A DNA stretch of 64,000 bases, from NCBI RefSeq assembly GCF_024298765.1, contig NZ_CP101210.1; one strand, 5' to 3'. The notes beneath the pieces are model-generated. The model saw only the letters and a list, made by a program, of their open reading frames with translations. It was not told where the DNA came from and made no database searches. This document shows, in pieces, positions 33,431 through 39,560 of the stretch; the first letter of the stretch is position 1; each line of letters begins with the position of its first letter. A program made the translations under genes and the position numbers. This DNA is from Escherichia coli (lineage in GTDB: Bacteria > Pseudomonadota > Gammaproteobacteria > Enterobacterales > Enterobacteriaceae).

Positions 33431-33982
33431 CTATCTTCTTAGCGATGTCTTTCTGGTATCACATTGGATCGGTGCAATTATTTTTCCTTTAATACCCATT
33501 ATGTTAAGAAATTCAGAAACAGCTGTAATCTCATTGGTTTTTTCATTCGTCTTGATCTTCCAAGGAATCTGACTGTGCATTATTGAGAACACACTAATAA
33601 CGTGAATCGCTCCCTTGCGACGACTCTTGTCATAAGAGTACCGGAGCGTTTTTCCATCAATTGCAATGACGTCTTTATCATCTGAAGAATGGCAGTCAAG
33701 CATCCAGTTAATAAAGCACTCATGAAATTTTGCAGGACTGATACAGGATACAACTCTGGCAATGGTATCGTGAACAGGAATACCATTATCAAAATCACCA
33801 TATTGCTTCAAAAAATCGAGATGTGTTTCCCCAAAATCCTCTATATCTTCCCAGCCTTCTGCACCCGAAATAACGGCACAAATAGTCAACAGTAGAATAT
33901 CCGATAATTTATGTTCCACTTTCCAGGCTTGTCTGTAATCGGGGATAATAGAAATATGTTCCATCAATTTTTTAAGTTCCAT
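33431..33982 (-). pseudogene. ydcC: Truncated H-repeat-associated (ISAs1-family transposase-like) gene, N-terminal fragment
   Basis: 183-aa ORF matching only the N-terminal half of the roughly 378-aa H-repeat protein; the remainder is missing where the DGC gene begins. Confidence 0.7.
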
Positions 33983-34222
33983 TTTGTTCTCCTTAATTAT
34001 GTAAGGAGTATTTGATCATGTATAAGCAATAAAAAACAGCTTTAGATAATGAGGAATATCTCAATTTTTAAACATAAAATGCGAATTATTTAGTACAAAA
34101 AAGCAGCGTTACGTGATCTTTCCATGGAAAAGAGAGTAATACACTGATTTTTAACGCAGATTGCCAGTGCTACCAACACTGACAATCTGCTCACCACAAG
34201 CAACTAACAGAGGTAGTTAATC

Positions 34223-34552
34223 ATGGCTGAACACGATATTACGCCAGAAGTCGCCATTTCCAAAACACAGCGCCGCTATAAAGTCGGCTATGTCAGAGCC
34301 CGCCACATAAACAGCAAAACCTACATGACCACGTACTACTCACGACACCCCAGCCTGAACCTTAAGGGCGACTGGCTGAAAGAGGCCGGATTTGATACCG
34401 GACGGGGTGTCACGGTGAAGATTTCGGAGGGGTGCCTGACCATCATCGCTGACAGTGACGAGGTGCAGGAACTGCGGGAGGAACTTTATCAGGTTAAACA
34501 GGTGGTTAAGGGGATGCGGAACGGGATGTTTAGTGTGCTGAACGAGAATTAA
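34223..34552 (+). CDS. SymE-family type I toxin-like protein (AbrB/SpoVT-fold)
   Basis: 109-aa ORF with RBS agagg; core LKGDWLKEAGFDTGRGVTVKISEGCLTIIA closely parallels E. coli SymE as I recall it ([30 protein letters not shown]). Confidence 0.65.
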   Translation: MAEHDITPEVAISKTQRRYKVGYVRARHINSKTYMTTYYSRHPSLNLKGDWLKEAGFDTGRGVTVKISEGCLTIIADSDEVQELREELYQVKQVVKGMRNGMFSVLNEN

Positions 34553-34602
34553 ATAATAAAAAAGCCGGGGAGATTTAAAATCTTCCCGGCTTTCTTTATC
34601 AT

Positions 34603-34905
34603 CTAAAAAGGTAATAATCCTCTAATAGGAGAAAATTTTGTAATATCAATACCTTGTAATTTAAAGTAATTAAAAGCATCTTCTATATTGGAAAACGCAC
34701 TAATTTCTTCAGTTGCATAATCTTCGAACACTTCCATTTTATTTTCTGGTATTTTGAAAAAATAGGTATTGTATTTTTCATCCTGTTTTTTAATGGCATA
34801 TTGGAAAAAATAACTTTCACCATTTATTTCCTTTATCTCATCAAAACCTCTAACCTTACCATTCTCTATAGCAACAATTAATTTTTCAATAGACAAATCA
34901 ACCAT
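34603..34905 (-). CDS. Putative Rhs toxin immunity protein
   Basis: 100-aa acidic, AT-rich ORF; start overlaps the toxin-tip stop by 8 nt; strong RBS (gagga). Confidence 0.6.
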   Translation of the reverse strand: MVDLSIEKLIVAIENGKVRGFDEIKEINGESYFFQYAIKKQDEKYNTYFFKIPENKMEVFEDYATEEISAFSNIEDAFNYFKLQGIDITKFSPIRGLLPF

Positions 34906-35312
34906 CTATATCTATCCTCACCATTGTCCCATCAGAACGTTTAATATTTATATGAGGCAAAGAACCATGCCCTGTGCCTTTATGGTCATCATGACCATAT
35001 ACACGACCAGTATTAGAATCAATAGGGTAACCTTTCCTATAACGGACAGTACCATCTCTTTTCTTAAATTGTTCCATCTTATGTTTTTTTCTAATACCGG
35101 CGGCATCCTGCGAACCGATCCCTCTTACTTTTTGAGCATCAGGAAAGGCCTCCATCAATAAATCATGGGCTTCCTGTTTTGATTTAACTGTGACAACGGT
35201 TCCTTGAGGCCCCTCTCGCAAAGATTTCGCGTTTTTGGAACATGCAGTCAGTCCCAGCGGATCGATCCAAGAGAGCGGATTCGGCGCGTATTGGTAGAGG
35301 TTTATTCCCCCC
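34898..35312 (-). CDS. Rhs C-terminal segment (core end INLYQYAPNPLSWIDPLGL plus variable toxin tip), out of frame with the Rhs core ORF
   Basis: Reading frame B on the minus strand gives GGINLYQYAPNPLSWIDPLGL followed by about 117 aa of His-rich variable tip (YGHDDHKGTGHGSLPH); it is joined to the core only if the G7 run at 35307..35313 is read as G6. Confidence 0.65.
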
Positions 35313-38300
35313 CGCTAACCCTATCGGATCCGTTACCATGAACCGCCCGACATCCGGATCATAGTACCTGTGCAGATTGTAATGCAGTCCCGTTTCCCTG
35401 TCGAGGTACTGTCCCTGGTAGCGCAGGTTCTGCGCCACCCCGCCGTGGTCCTTCTCCTGTATCGTGTTACCCCAGACCTGATACCCCGTCTCCCACACGA
35501 TTTTCCCGTCACTGTCCGTCATCTCTTCCGGCGCGCCGTTCACATCCGTGTGAAAATACAGTATCCGGTTCGGGCCCTCTTTGCCCGCCTTATCCACCCG
35601 CGCCAGCGGTTCATAACTCCCCGGGTCCCTGTAGATGTACAGGCTGTCTGTTCCCTCCGGCCTGCTCTCCTGCGCCAGCCGCATTCCGTCCCATAAAAAT
35701 GCCGTCCGGTTGTACGGTTTACCGTCAGGGCTGATGTGCTGTTTTTCCGTCCGCCTCCCCAGCGCATCGTACACATACCGGTACGTTCCCCGCGCTGTCG
35801 TCACTTCCACCATCCGGTGTTCCGCATCATAACGGTAACTCTGCGTGCCGCTCCGCCCCTCCTTTTCCACCGCACGGCCAAATTCGTCGTAACGGTAGTG
35901 CACACCACGGTAAGACATCAGCCGGTTGAACGGCACCACGCTGTTTTCTGCCGTGGCCCTTTCCCCCGCGCGCCGCCCCAGCAGGTTTCCCGCCGCGTCG
36001 TACTGCCAGCTCGCCAGATACCCCTCATCCTCCGAGCGGCACGCCGTGATGCGCCCCGTGGGGTCGTAGAAGTAATCCGTTTCCCCCCGCCGGCTGTGCC
36101 GCGTCTTCAGCAGTTCATCCTCGCCACTGTAGCTGTACTGCCGGTCCGTGAACGTCTCCGGTACCACCCCGCGCATCCCGCTGTATGTCTCCCTGCGCTT
36201 CAGCCGCCCGGCGGGGTCGTAAAGCTGCCGCGTGCTCAGTCGCCCCTGACTTCTGAGCACTTCACGGTGCAGGGCGTCACGAGTGAACTCGCTGATGACC
36301 TCCCGGTCCAGATTTATCTGCTGGAGATGGCCGCTGCCGTAGTACAGATGACGCTGCGTTCTGCCGTCCGGAAAGGTGGTGGCTGTCCGGTTGCTGAGTT
36401 CATCGTACTGATGGGTCAGGACGCCCTGCGCCGTCTCCTCAGTCAGCATCCGCCCCAGTCTGTCGTAACTGAAACGGATAATCTCCGGTGCGTCTGTTTC
36501 CCCGGCATCCGACCGTCGGCGGCGGATTTCCAGTAACTGGTCTGCCGCATCATGGACGTATTCCGTACGGCTATCGGCTGTCTCCTTTGCCGTGAGCCGG
36601 CCCGCCGCATCACGTGCCAGCCGGTGGCGGATTTCACCGCCCCGGTCCCCGGTGAACACCACTTCCGTGACCGCGTTCAGCGCGTTGTAGCGGTACGTCT
36701 GGCGGCAGCCGTCCGGATTTATCTGCTCCGCCAGACGGTCCAGCACGTCATGGCGGAACCGGTAGCTTTCTCCGTTCTCGTTTGTCAGCGTGACCAGACG
36801 CCCGTAAGCATCGTACCCGAACGCCGTCCTGCGCCCCGTCGCGTCTGTCCGGCTGCGCACCCGGCCCTGCCCGTCCCGCTGCCAGCGCGTTATCCTCCCC
36901 ATCGGGCTGGTGTACTTCACCAGCCTGCCCGCCGCGTCCGACTGGTAATTCACCGTGCGGCCGTCCGCCAGTATCACCTCCGTCAGGTGGCCGCTGTCGT
37001 CATACCCGTAGCGCGTGCTGTGGCTCTGCGCGTCTGTCATCCGTATCAGCCGCGTGCGTTCGTCGTAGAACCAGGCCGTCTGCGAGCCGGAACAGTCCGT
37101 GTGCCGCATGAGCTGCCCGTCTTCGTTCCACTGAAGGTATTTATTCCCCCCGCGCGCATCGGTTATCTGCACCACCTGGCCGTGGCGGTCATACTGATAC
37201 CGGGTGTTCTGCTGCAGCGGGTCGGTCACCGCAAGAAGATTGCCGCGTTCATCGTACTCACAGCACCAGCTGTTCCCCGCCGCGTCCACCTCCGTTTCCG
37301 GCTGGTGCCACACCGGGTGCCACTGTGTCTGTGCCACCCGCCCCAGCGGGTCGTGCGTCTCCGTGATATGCCCCTGCCGGTCATACACATAGCGCCATTT
37401 GCCGCCCTGCGCATCGGTCATTCCCAGTAACAGCCGTTCTTCGTCGCTCCAGCGGAACGTCGTCACCTGCCCGGCTTCGTCCTGGTACGCCGTCACCTGA
37501 TTCTGCGCGTCCCACTGATGATAACGCGTGCGCCCCAGCCCGTCCGTCACGCACAGCCTGCGTGACGCCAGGCTCCACGCCAGCCGGTACTGTTCACCGC
37601 TGTCCGTGTGGTGCCCCGTCACCCGCCACGCTGCGTCATCCGGGCCTTCATACCAGCTCCACTGGTAATAATACCCTTCGCCGCCCGGCTGGCGGTGCAG
37701 GGTCATGCAGTGGTTTTCGTCGTAAGCAAACTCGCGCAGCAGGTGTCCCGTGCTGTCGTACACGCCGTTCAGGTCGCCGGCCTCGTCATAGCGGTAACGA
37801 CGCAGCAGTAAAGGAGCCGTCTCAGGGAAATGCTGATAAATCTGTGTCACCCGCCGGGGATGCGCCGCCAGTTCATAATGCAGACGGATGCACGGACGCT
37901 GCTGTTCACCGCTGATTTGCGTGATGCGCCCCAGCTCGTCGTAGTACAGATTCAGACAGTTGCTGTTGCGGTCGCCCAGCATTTTCAGCCGCTGGCGCTG
38001 CGGGTGATGCGGGTCGGCTTCAAACAGAAAAAACTGCCCGTCATCGCTGCTGATAAGCCAGTGCCCCTGCTCACCCCGCCTTACCGCCAGTCCTTCGCCG
38101 GGGCTGTAAAACCCGCTCCCCGGCAGCACGGCCTCCATATCCAGGCGTCGCCCCATGCCCGACACAAAGGTCATGCAGTTTTCGTCAGCAGTACCCGGCG
38201 TGCGCCCGAGGCTGACTTCATACATCACGCTCCAGCCCTGCCCGAACATCCCTTCCGTGCGGTCGTCACGACTGCTGTACACGCGCTGCCAGTCCAGCGG

Positions 38301-39560
38301 AAAGTGGCCCGGCAGACTGAAATCGAAGTCATCGTCATCGGCCAGATATTTGGCTCCGGTGGCGGCATTGACCGGATGCGGAAGGGCACTGATGGCCTTC
38401 TGCGTCATCACCCCCATCCCGACACTGGCAGCAAAACAGGCGATTTTAGAAAGCATTTTGCCCGGGCGAAGAAACATCAGCGCCACGGTTGCCACCAGGG
38501 TTATCTGCGACCTGCCGCTTCTGATATCCCTGACCACCAGTAACGGACCGCCAATGCGGACATCCGGTGACACAAACGCCCCGTTCCCCGGCTCATTCAC
38601 CACCCTGGCCTCGCAGGTGCAGCGTGCCCCGCTGCGTGCCGCCGGCTGGCTGTTGATACGCACATCCCGCGCGCCTTCCGCGATATATTCCGCTGCGGGC
38701 GGTTCATCATCGCCTTTGAACAGATTACTGATGCTGCCAATAACCGCATTCACTCCCTGAAAGGCGGTTTCCAGCATACCGTCCGGACTCAGCAGGTTAA
38801 GGGCCGTTCCCAGGGGGTCATCCAGAAAGGCGGCTTTTTTTTGTGCGAGAAACTGCGTCAGTGAGGAGGGATGTTTATGGCAGTCGATTTTATCGTCAGG
38901 GGTCGGGGTGGAGCCCGGGGCCGCACTGGCCACGGTGGGCTGCCATAGTTCCGACACAAAATGTGTCACGCCATCCACCATTTCAGAACGCCCTTCTTCC
39001 GTACTGAGCTGGTCGTGCAGCGCCCGGGACATCAGCACAGGCCCTGTCACCGGGTTAACCGCCAGGGCTATGGCCCCCGCCATTTCCAGATATTCCCCGG
39101 CCACATCCAGGAACGTTCTGGCATCCTCCTGACGCTGCGCTTCTTCCTGTTCCGCCTTCGCCTGCGCCTCCTGCGCCTCAATGTCCTGCCGCGATGCCGC
39201 AGTCGCCGCGGCCCGCGCGGCAGGTTTGCTGTTGATCCATGTGTCGCCAGAGCCGGTGAGGATGTAACCTTCAATCTGAGGCGGGAAAAGCATATTTGCG
39301 AGGTCTGAACAGACTTCGCTGACCGTGTCTGTCACGCCGGTGTACACCATCGCCACACCCGCCACAAAACCGGTCAGCACGACGGCCGTGCACCCCATCG
39401 TGATCCCCACTGACGCCGCCAGTAACGAGGTTGTGCCGACAATGAGGGCATCAATAACGACATTTGCGGCCACCTCCAGCACCGCCCCCAGCACATCTGC
39501 CATAAACGACGTATGCAGCAGGGCATCACCCTGCCTTGCCGCCCAGAATGCCTCTTCCAT
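35184..39560 (-). CDS. Rhs-family T6SS effector core (prePAAR motif, TM helices, PAAR, YD repeats), as the ORF in the present frame
   Basis: 1458-aa ORF; N-terminus MEEAFWAARQGDALLH matches the prePAAR AARxxDxxxH motif; hydrophobic helices follow; literal PAAR motifs; numerous YD/RHS repeats; core end RYYDPDVGRFMVTDPIGLAGG; after the G-run the frame runs 41 unrelated codons to a stop at 35184. Occupies the K-12 rhsE position by synteny. Confidence 0.85.
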   Translation of the reverse strand: MEEAFWAARQGDALLHTSFMADVLGAVLEVAANVVIDALIVGTTSLLAASVGITMGCTAVVLTGFVAGVAMVYTGVTDTVSEVCSDLANMLFPPQIEGYILTGSGDTWINSKPAARAAATAASRQDIEAQEAQAKAEQEEAQRQEDARTFLDVAGEYLEMAGAIALAVNPVTGPVLMSRALHDQLSTEEGRSEMVDGVTHFVSELWQPTVASAAPGSTPTPDDKIDCHKHPSSLTQFLAQKKAAFLDDPLGTALNLLSPDGMLETAFQGVNAVIGSISNLFKGDDEPPAAEYIAEGARDVRINSQPAARSGARCTCEARVVNEPGNGAFVSPDVRIGGPLLVVRDIRSGRSQITLVATVALMFLRPGKMLSKIACFAASVGMGVMTQKAISALPHPVNAATGAKYLADDDDFDFSLPGHFPLDWQRVYSSRDDRTEGMFGQGWSVMYEVSLGRTPGTADENCMTFVSGMGRRLDMEAVLPGSGFYSPGEGLAVRRGEQGHWLISSDDGQFFLFEADPHHPQRQRLKMLGDRNSNCLNLYYDELGRITQISGEQQRPCIRLHYELAAHPRRVTQIYQHFPETAPLLLRRYRYDEAGDLNGVYDSTGHLLREFAYDENHCMTLHRQPGGEGYYYQWSWYEGPDDAAWRVTGHHTDSGEQYRLAWSLASRRLCVTDGLGRTRYHQWDAQNQVTAYQDEAGQVTTFRWSDEERLLLGMTDAQGGKWRYVYDRQGHITETHDPLGRVAQTQWHPVWHQPETEVDAAGNSWCCEYDERGNLLAVTDPLQQNTRYQYDRHGQVVQITDARGGNKYLQWNEDGQLMRHTDCSGSQTAWFYDERTRLIRMTDAQSHSTRYGYDDSGHLTEVILADGRTVNYQSDAAGRLVKYTSPMGRITRWQRDGQGRVRSRTDATGRRTAFGYDAYGRLVTLTNENGESYRFRHDVLDRLAEQINPDGCRQTYRYNALNAVTEVVFTGDRGGEIRHRLARDAAGRLTAKETADSRTEYVHDAADQLLEIRRRRSDAGETDAPEIIRFSYDRLGRMLTEETAQGVLTHQYDELSNRTATTFPDGRTQRHLYYGSGHLQQINLDREVISEFTRDALHREVLRSQGRLSTRQLYDPAGRLKRRETYSGMRGVVPETFTDRQYSYSGEDELLKTRHSRRGETDYFYDPTGRITACRSEDEGYLASWQYDAAGNLLGRRAGERATAENSVVPFNRLMSYRGVHYRYDEFGRAVEKEGRSGTQSYRYDAEHRMVEVTTARGTYRYVYDALGRRTEKQHISPDGKPYNRTAFLWDGMRLAQESRPEGTDSLYIYRDPGSYEPLARVDKAGKEGPNRILYFHTDVNGAPEEMTDSDGKIVWETGYQVWGNTIQEKDHGGVAQNLRYQGQYLDRETGLHYNLHRYYDPDVGRFMVTDPIGLAGGNKPLPIRAESALLDRSAGTDCMFQKREIFARGASRNRCHS

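Follow-up and report, generated by a model that had tools for sequence, protein, structure and literature searches.

What is the 109-codon open reading frame (ORF) that lies behind an Rhs gene in a 64,000-nucleotide stretch of an Escherichia coli chromosome (assembly GCF_024298765.1, contig NZ_CP101210.1; hereafter the window), and is it accompanied by an RNA gene on the opposite strand? The original prediction, made from the sequence alone, described a SymE-like type I toxin gene with a good ribosome-binding site (RBS), convergent with an Rhs immunity gene and adjacent to an H-repeat remnant, and by analogy with symE of E. coli K-12 it expected a SymR-like antisense RNA across the 5' end and suggested looking for a LexA box upstream. 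We conclude, with a probability of roughly 0.8 and from comparisons of sequence, that the locus is a SymE/SymR-type module, from a clade of the SymE family that is distinct and linked to Rhs. What this adds for the window is chiefly annotation: the gene's own annotation and the type of neighbourhood were already known or published, and the SymR-like RNA gene opposite this already-named SymE-family gene was previously unannotated.

The ORF (34223-34552, plus strand) is intact, starts with ATG and has a GAGG nine nucleotides upstream (34210-34213), in agreement with the original prediction. The identity proposed for it is also supported by a family profile: Pfam SymE_toxin (PF08845) aligned residues 16-75 of the protein with profile positions 1-53 of 54 (73.2 bits against a gathering score of 29, E = 1.8e-20), and RefSeq already names the protein (WP_000807556.1) "SymE family type I addiction module toxin". 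A BLASTP comparison with K-12 SymE gave 42% identity over 72 amino acids (E = 4e-17). Searching 5.8 billion proteins returned 372 homologues, every one named SymE family, from Escherichia, Shigella, Salmonella, Citrobacter, Kosakonia, Erwinia, Yersinia and Xenorhabdus; PF08845 was present in 120 of 120 homologues among the matches listed. The pooled ratio of non-synonymous to synonymous diversity (pN/pS) across 18 distinct 109-codon homologues was 0.41, and the ORF therefore evolves as a protein. Members of the clade occur in 224 of 5,426 complete E. coli genomes (approximately 4%), at a median of three places each, which distinguishes the clade from K-12 symE.

On the opposite strand, the Rfam symR model (RF01809) matched the window at 34153-34228 (48.3 bits, E = 7e-7). 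The predicted RNA would begin with an A at 34228, three nucleotides past the ATG, as annotated for K-12 symR, and is perfectly complementary to the start codon, the Shine-Dalgarno (SD) sequence and the entire proximal 5' untranslated region of the symE-like gene. The 79-nt minus-strand sequence folds into two hairpins (minimum free energy -35.3 kcal/mol, z = -5.5), of which hairpin 1 occupies 34227-34193 and carries the anti-SD sequence CCUC in its loop, and hairpin 2 occupies 34190-34156. K-12 SymR, an RNA of about 77 nt, likewise has two hairpins with the anti-SD in the loop of the first, and neither RNA has a U-tract after hairpin 2 (GCGYUAAA). The two-hairpin shape is common to the window, K-12 SymR, a Buttiauxella locus (L011) and a metagenome-assembled genome of Erwinia (L022), with z values from -3.6 to -8.5; copies with unrelated upstream DNA (L003, L006, L007, L008 and L020) have no such fold.

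Relatives of this region were gathered from metagenome contigs with a pattern that constrained the start region and hairpin 1 on its 3' side and nothing else, which yielded 74 loci, and an alignment of 49 distinct antisense sequences, including K-12 SymR, was used for covariation analysis. In this alignment 91.8% of the cells are paired, compared with 30-54% when the 3' partners are slid by one to three columns, and both partners vary in 19 of the 28 pairs. Hairpin 2, outside the search pattern, has such two-sided changes in 14 of its 15 pairs, with up to six pair types per position. Wobble pairs distinguish the two strands: the antisense strand has 227 G·U pairs against 25 A·C cells (the cells that would read as G·U if the sense strand were the one that folds), and 70 against 15 in hairpin 2 alone after six rows with a replaced 3' arm were dropped. 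This excess argues that the structure is selected in the minus-strand RNA. Among 12 full-length loci, the Rfam model recovered the RNA in the window and Buttiauxella only and missed clear two-hairpin relatives, such as the Erwinia locus L035, and we therefore built a separate covariance model (R1) from 27 relatives, leaving out the window sequence. R1 matched the window over the interval given for the RNA in Table 1 with 74.4 bits (E = 1.1e-16), the sole significant match in 64 kb (the next had an E-value of at least 0.4). A large, structurally conserved set of SymR relatives is thus missed by the current Rfam model.

The predicted promoter of the antisense RNA lies inside the symE-like coding sequence (CDS). 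Its -10 hexamer, TAATAT (34241-34236, minus strand), is 7 nt from +1 and corresponds to CDS nucleotides 14-19, and a -35 element (TTGGAA or TTTGGA) is located at about 34264-34258 on the same strand. K-12 has the hexamer TAGAAT at these CDS nucleotides, in the -10 position relative to symR. Point mutations in the K-12 -10 element that leave the SymE protein sequence unchanged abolish SymR, according to a passage of Kawano et al. (2007, PMC1891008) that does not give the hexamer in the text. Positions 14, 15, 18 and 19 of the CDS are A, T, T and A in 49-51 of 51 distinct N-terminal sequences, which reads TAnnAT on the antisense strand, and the residues encoded there differ (HDIT, HHKS, KHSK and others). 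Synonymous diversity is 0.02-0.07 in codons 1-16 compared with 0.16-0.46 elsewhere. A scan for consensus promoters called none for either the symE-like gene or the antisense RNA, and the case for the antisense promoter therefore comes from comparative evidence instead; the promoter search suggested by the original prediction failed as a consensus scan and succeeded in that a conserved -10 was found at the K-12 position. The antisense RNA gene itself had been placed at 34180-34300, and RNA and promoter together span about 34148-34264 (minus strand), as judged from Rfam symR, model R1, covariation, the G·U bias and the conserved -10. On this comparative evidence, an unannotated, divergent antisense RNA gene of the SymR family lies over the symE-like start codon, and its RNA is a predicted transcript in the window strain. 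The comparative support is unusually clean, combining covariation, strand-specific wobble pairs and a promoter kept through changing codons.

Other copies differ in how much of this region they share with the window. Those at the ybgA border (L003, L004, L005 and L014; the rhsC locus of E. coli and other Escherichia) share no homology with the window farther than 34 nt upstream of the ATG and retain the SymR-like hairpin 1 without hairpin 2 (approximately 25 bits with R1), and in L006, L007, L008 and L020 conservation begins only at the RBS. Because the homology starts differ in this way, the left edge of the conserved block is variable and often falls within the antisense gene.

A second Rfam family raises the question of whether a longer antisense RNA is the relevant product. 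The isrA model (RF01385) matched the antisense strand of the CDS at 118.8 bits, well above its gathering score of 51, and matched a Salmonella homologue at the same place with 141 bits. IsrA of Salmonella was reported to be 423 nt long, cis-antisense to STM0294.1n and expressed inversely to it (Padalon-Brauch et al. 2008, PMC2330248), and by analogy antisense transcription across genes of this kind has experimental support in a relative. The Salmonella case resembles ours in having a symE-like gene beside Rhs (in Salmonella pathogenicity island 6) and an isrA model that matches the antisense strand of the window CDS, and differs in that the model covers the middle of the CDS whereas the SymR-like RNA of the window covers the start codon. 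Since IsrA in Salmonella and Ssr1 in Shigella were experimentally detected at homologous loci, a long small RNA (sRNA) of the IsrA/Ssr1 type could be the functional product and the ORF incidental. We consider this very improbable. Synonymous diversity is highest in codons 25-44, within the isrA-matched region, with a clear excess of synonymous over non-synonymous change, and the synonymous diversity analysis found no sign of nucleotide-level constraint or structured RNA in that region. The ORF, moreover, is a bona fide Pfam family member kept over many genera, and the Ssr1 model (RF02627) scored 112.5 bits, far under its gathering score of 820.

Membership of the window in the Ssr1 family was ruled out on that score, and the 5' part of the model, over the immunity region, is unrelated. 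Ssr1 of Shigella flexneri lies between the Rhs-family gene SF0268 and SF0269, in an interval called intergenic (Wang et al. 2016, PMC4782007). The window is similar to it in being an Rhs-adjacent interval, and the Rfam model, in its 3' half, can be aligned with the strand opposite the symE-like CDS. Both Rfam families were apparently modelled on the reverse complement of a symE-like CDS (34294-34422 for isrA and 34253-34849 for Ssr1, minus strand, the latter together with the immunity interval). The deletion phenotypes of Shigella Ssr1 may involve a symE-like or immunity gene that goes unmentioned in the paper. Since IsrA and Ssr1 are antisense to, or beside, members of the same gene clade, their phenotypes may need to be re-read.

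The analogy with K-12 was not upheld upstream of the gene, where the original prediction had pointed to SOS induction through LexA. No site matching CTGT-N8-ACAG with at most one mismatch was found in the symE-like region. A CTG-N10-CAG palindrome (34142-34161) overlaps the likely -10/+1 region, which would suit an orthologue of the SOS-induced K-12 symE under LexA control. Its heterology index of about 15.5, however, is outside the range of known boxes (0.7-9.6; 7.6 for K-12 symE; approximate values from a rebuilt matrix of E. coli boxes), at a level expected by chance, as forty-one 20-mers in the window score as well. The CAG is CGG in most relatives and forms the base of the covarying hairpin stem. 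We therefore see no credible LexA box in the sequence upstream of the gene. Orthology with K-12 symE is equally hard to reconcile with the NCBIfam SymE equivalog (NF010128), which scored 50.9 bits against a cut-off of 132, with a blastn comparison that detected no DNA similarity between the two genes, and with location: K-12 symE, with its SOS-type LexA box, sits in the hsd/mcr region between mcrB and hsdS, whereas the window copy is at rhsE. There is thus hardly any chance that the window gene is that orthologue; by these comparisons it is a paralogue within the SymE family.

A second SymE clade (N-terminus MADMHHKSGT..., 35-55% identical; L041, L047, L050, L059-L068 and others) has a conserved AGGTGTATATTTAAACAGGT approximately 105-115 nt before the start codon. 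With a heterology index of about 9.3, this site falls in the range of functional LexA boxes, and these copies also have a SymR-like two-hairpin gene.

The region upstream of the window gene has been altered by an insertion sequence (IS). In a megablast search with 33900-34230 as query, copies of ISEc1 in 5,338 of 5,426 genomes matched only to query position 224-228 (34123-34127), which places the end of ISEc1 at about 34127, at a distance of 95 nt from the start codon. The next stretch of the window, beginning near 34128, aligns with loci of relatives that have an XRE-type helix-turn-helix (HTH) gene of about 130-145 amino acids whose end is 64-86 nt before the symE ATG. Locus L070 has an intact 143-amino-acid HTH ORF ending in ...AAKKRE* at the equivalent point; the window keeps only the last codons and stop (34128-34139), with ISEc1 in place of the remainder. 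An HTH gene is present upstream of symE in 22 of 32 full-length metagenomic relatives and in all four of four Erwinia pyrifoliae copies, and it occurs together with a SymR-like gene in L035, L039, L046, L057, L058 and L070; in L035 it stands beside a perfect SymR-like two-hairpin sequence (z = -8.5). This suggests that the usual layout of the clade is HTH-symE with the SymR-like gene between them, and in the relatives the HTH gene is probably co-transcribed with symE. By this alignment, the ancestor of the window copy presumably had an upstream XRE-HTH gene that was later removed by the insertion of ISEc1, which presumably removed the operon promoter too. Given the missing LexA box and consensus promoter and the severed HTH gene, the symE-like gene of the window strain is probably weakly expressed or silent, with the antisense gene intact.

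Taken further, these losses raise the possibility that the window gene is a silent, decaying passenger, neither strand of which functions now that promoter and HTH partner are lost. The neighbouring Rhs gene is frameshifted too, and the locus is clonal: many complete E. coli genomes match a 638-bp query spanning it with 100% identity, and the query is covered to at least 80% in 81 genomes. The ORF, RBS, antisense promoter and both hairpins are nevertheless intact, and IS ends can supply an outward -35 element; here TTTCCA (34119-34124) is followed 15 nt on by TACACT. We regard complete decay as possible but somewhat doubtful.

Ends of ISEc1 or the H-repeat adjoin symE-like genes at several points: 95 nt upstream of the ATG in the window, within SymR hairpin 2 in L076, L065 and L081, and within the CDS in L004 (6195-7601) and in hit H50. 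These ends may help to explain the long-known association of the H-repeat with Rhs, or may reflect selection to disable the module.

What the protein does has been studied in K-12. Overproduced K-12 SymE inhibits growth (PMC1891008, PMC11894785), and the SymE family was placed in the AbrB superfamily on profile and threading evidence (Kawano et al. 2007, PMC1891008). According to PMC11894785, DNA binding and nucleoid condensation have taken the place of the RNase mechanism first proposed for SymE (Thompson et al. 2022, as cited there), and SymE is viewed as a non-specific DNA-binding protein for which RNase activity could not be demonstrated. An AlphaFold2 (AF2) monomer of the window protein, built from a 23-sequence alignment and of low confidence (predicted local distance difference test, pLDDT, 61.8), has strands at 18-29, 36-48, 63-68 and 71-76 and helices at 50-55 and 79-107. 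This predicted order of elements is compatible with an AbrB/MazE-like swapped-hairpin fold. The beta-beta-alpha-beta-beta arrangement with a long helix is like that of MazE and AbrB domains, although no sequence or fold match was obtained; phmmer and hmmsearch found no relative among PDB sequences. A toxin role for the SymE-like protein would reverse the antitoxin role of MazE.

By analogy with K-12 symE/symR (Kawano 2007), the antisense RNA would be made constitutively, pair with the symE-like mRNA, block ribosome binding and lower the mRNA level. SymE-like protein that accumulated would bind DNA through its AbrB/MazE-like domain and arrest growth, as proposed for K-12 (Thompson 2022). With antisense repression and a growth-arresting protein, both by analogy, the module may behave as an addiction or stabilisation element, which from its context could serve the Rhs tip/immunity cassette or the mobile element that delivers it. 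For the window gene, "toxin" is a label given by annotation.

The same observations could describe a DNA-binding regulator with an AbrB fold, or a nucleoid-associated factor, that belongs to the Rhs cassette or mobile element, its level being set by the HTH gene and the antisense RNA. Non-specific DNA binding by K-12 SymE would fit such a role, as would the relatives in which symE is the second gene of an HTH-symE unit divergent from primase-integrase genes, an arrangement like a mobile-element control region. Many copies also persist without a complete SymR-like gene, which would be unexpected if the product were strongly toxic. Growth inhibition by overproduced K-12 SymE speaks for toxicity instead; repression in several layers (antisense RNA and HTH protein) is typical for toxic products, and the many copies that are 5'-truncated, frameshifted or hit by an IS are consistent with selection against an active toxin. 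We judge a regulator in place of a toxin to be unlikely.

Several results weigh against a SymE/SymR-type module in the window. The Rfam symR score is below the gathering score of 61 and well below the 95.3 bits of K-12 SymR, and the antisense promoter, which the consensus scan did not call, fits eight of 12 consensus positions. The outer stem of hairpin 1 was preset by the pattern that collected the relatives, so that hairpin 2 alone is an unbiased test of covariation, and the statistics of the shuffle control ignore kinship among the sequences. In other genomes, hairpin 2 or the whole 5' end is missing from most of the Rhs-linked copies, so the gene can be carried without this antisense RNA. 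The low-confidence AF2 model (pLDDT 62) gave no MazE/AbrB match, and Foldseek returned no PDB hit at E < 0.001. Growth inhibition is known for K-12 SymE only; no report of a toxicity test on the Rhs-linked clade was found in the literature. The allele is identical in approximately 70-80 genomes, and the intactness of the copy may reflect recent clonal spread alone.

That the symE-like gene travels with the Rhs cassette was borne out by its relatives. In 29 loci of other species, 37 of the 39 symE-like copies with enough downstream sequence have the end of an opposite-strand Rhs core within 3.5 kb, and several contigs carry arrays that repeat tip-immunity-symE fragments. At rhsC-type loci of E. 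coli the gene recurs behind each tip/immunity module, with some copies frameshifted or truncated, and Salmonella loci have the same arrangement. No Rhs core was found downstream of the distant metagenomic SymE clade (approximately 35-55% identity). Judging by this gene order, the module is inherited together with tip/immunity cassettes across Enterobacterales. Members of the Rhs-linked clade mark the distal end of these cassettes almost universally in this order, and could help to delimit them and trace their movement.

SymE genes in RHS/haemagglutinin neighbourhoods and beside a primase-helicase gene were drawn already by Kawano et al. (2007, PMC1891008), and later genome papers describe SymE adjoining type VI secretion system genes in Erwinia and Pantoea. 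Relatives of the window gene show the published cHTH-SymE operon (Kawano 2007, Fig. 7A), sometimes by a DnaG-primase/helicase gene, and by RHS genes. In that report the transcription-factor type and the sRNA type were presented as alternatives; in the window clade both co-occur at single loci, so that its members differ from K-12 symE/symR in having an upstream XRE-HTH gene besides the antisense RNA. The window copy itself does not match the cHTH-SymE type, its HTH gene having been lost to the IS. Although the window protein and K-12 SymE are both in PF08845, they share only the 42% identity of their cores, and the C-terminal helix is unlike.

In L035-L038 (E. pyrifoliae), L007 (Citrobacter sedlakii) and L022, a larger unit surrounds the gene: an integrase gene and a DnaG-primase/helicase gene point outwards on one side, an XRE-HTH gene and symE are divergent from them, and a SUKH immunity gene and a Tox-HNH-HHH tip converge on symE from the other side. 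The E. pyrifoliae unit exists in two forms, one fused to a full Rhs core (L037 and L038) and the other tandem, stand-alone and core-less (L035 and L036), and the two are homologous up to the NPLTWIDPLGL junction, 24 nt upstream of the tip ORF. Tentatively, HTH-SymE-SymR could be the control or addiction module of integrase/primase mobile elements that carry an Rhs tip and immunity gene and have one end at the core/tip junction (...NPLxWIDPLGL). Such elements would be a vehicle for the "C-terminal displacement" by which Rhs toxins become diverse, and the E. coli copy would be a stranded cargo end that was later clipped by ISEc1.

Table 1. Features around the symE-like gene of the window, with coordinates and the basis of each assignment.
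Feature	Coordinates	Strand	Basis
Truncated transposase ORF of the ISAs1 family (ISEc1/H-repeat), N-terminal 183 aa	33431..33982	-	Pfam DDE_Tnp_1_assoc 117 bits; NCBIfam transpos_ISAs1 168 bits; RefSeq "ISAs1 family transposase, frameshifted, incomplete"
Terminal non-coding part of ISEc1 copy	33983..34127		Homology to ISEc1 copies ends at 34123-34127
Last codons and TAA stop of XRE-type HTH gene	34128..34139	+	Alignment with L070, L082 and L046
CTG-N10-CAG palindrome CACTGATTTTTAACGCAGAT, candidate LexA box judged not credible	34142..34161		Heterology index about 15.5
Predicted SymR-like cis-antisense RNA, about 76-80 nt	34148..34228	-	Rfam symR, covariance model R1, covariation
Predicted promoter of the SymR-like RNA, in codons 5-14 of the symE-like CDS	34236..34264	-	-10 position as in K-12; conservation
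symE-like CDS, 109 aa, WP_000807556.1	34223..34552	+	Pfam, RefSeq, BLASTP
Rfam isrA match on antisense strand of the CDS	34294..34422	-	118.8 bits against gathering score 51
15-bp GC-rich hairpin, putative shared bidirectional terminator	34561..34593		Terminator scan (+ strand); sequence of reverse strand
100-aa ORF, putative immunity gene of the Rhs tip	34603..34905	-	Position only; RefSeq hypothetical protein
Rhs C-terminal toxin tip, 107-aa ORF in a different frame from the core	34898..35221	-	Frame +1 reading
PAAR-DUF6531-RHS core protein gene, 1458 aa, frameshifted at the core/tip junction	35184..39560	-	Pfam RHS_repeat 264 bits; DUF6531, RHS, PAAR

The gene order of the locus is that of an rhsE-type region of the E. 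coli chromosome: narH-narW-narI, yddE, nhoA, yddH, pptA, a sulfatase gene, a GGDEF gene, the ISAs1 remnant, the symE-like gene, two hypothetical proteins, Rhs, a DcrB-like gene and VgrG. The truncated ISAs1/ISEc1 transposase ORF is the H-repeat remnant recognised in the original prediction, which was likewise right that the symE-like gene converges with its neighbour, the 100-aa ORF directly behind the Rhs tip. The ATG of this ORF overlaps the stop codon of the tip ORF, and its putative immunity role is assigned by position only. Between the two convergent genes, the GC-rich hairpin has an A-run on one side and a T-run on the other; the terminator scan called it on the plus strand, and its reverse complement is followed by TTTTTTATTATTT. 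It looks like a bidirectional terminator common to the symE-like gene and the immunity ORF. No Pfam or NCBIfam model matched the toxin tip (...GHDDHKGTGHGSLPHINIKRSDGTMVRIDIDG) or the putative immunity protein, and the tip/immunity pair (34603-35221) is uncharacterised.

A frameshift interrupts the Rhs gene exactly where core and tip join, near 35290 (35184-35330, minus strand: GCGGGGGGGAATAAACC). The core ORF terminates 40 codons past the frameshift, and frame +1 reads GGINLYQYAPNPLSWIDPLGL through the toxin tip to 34898. Approximately 70 complete E. coli genomes carry this frameshifted allele with 100% identity. In strain A37 (H88) the Rhs gene is 1 nt shorter, and RefSeq annotates it as a single Rhs protein.

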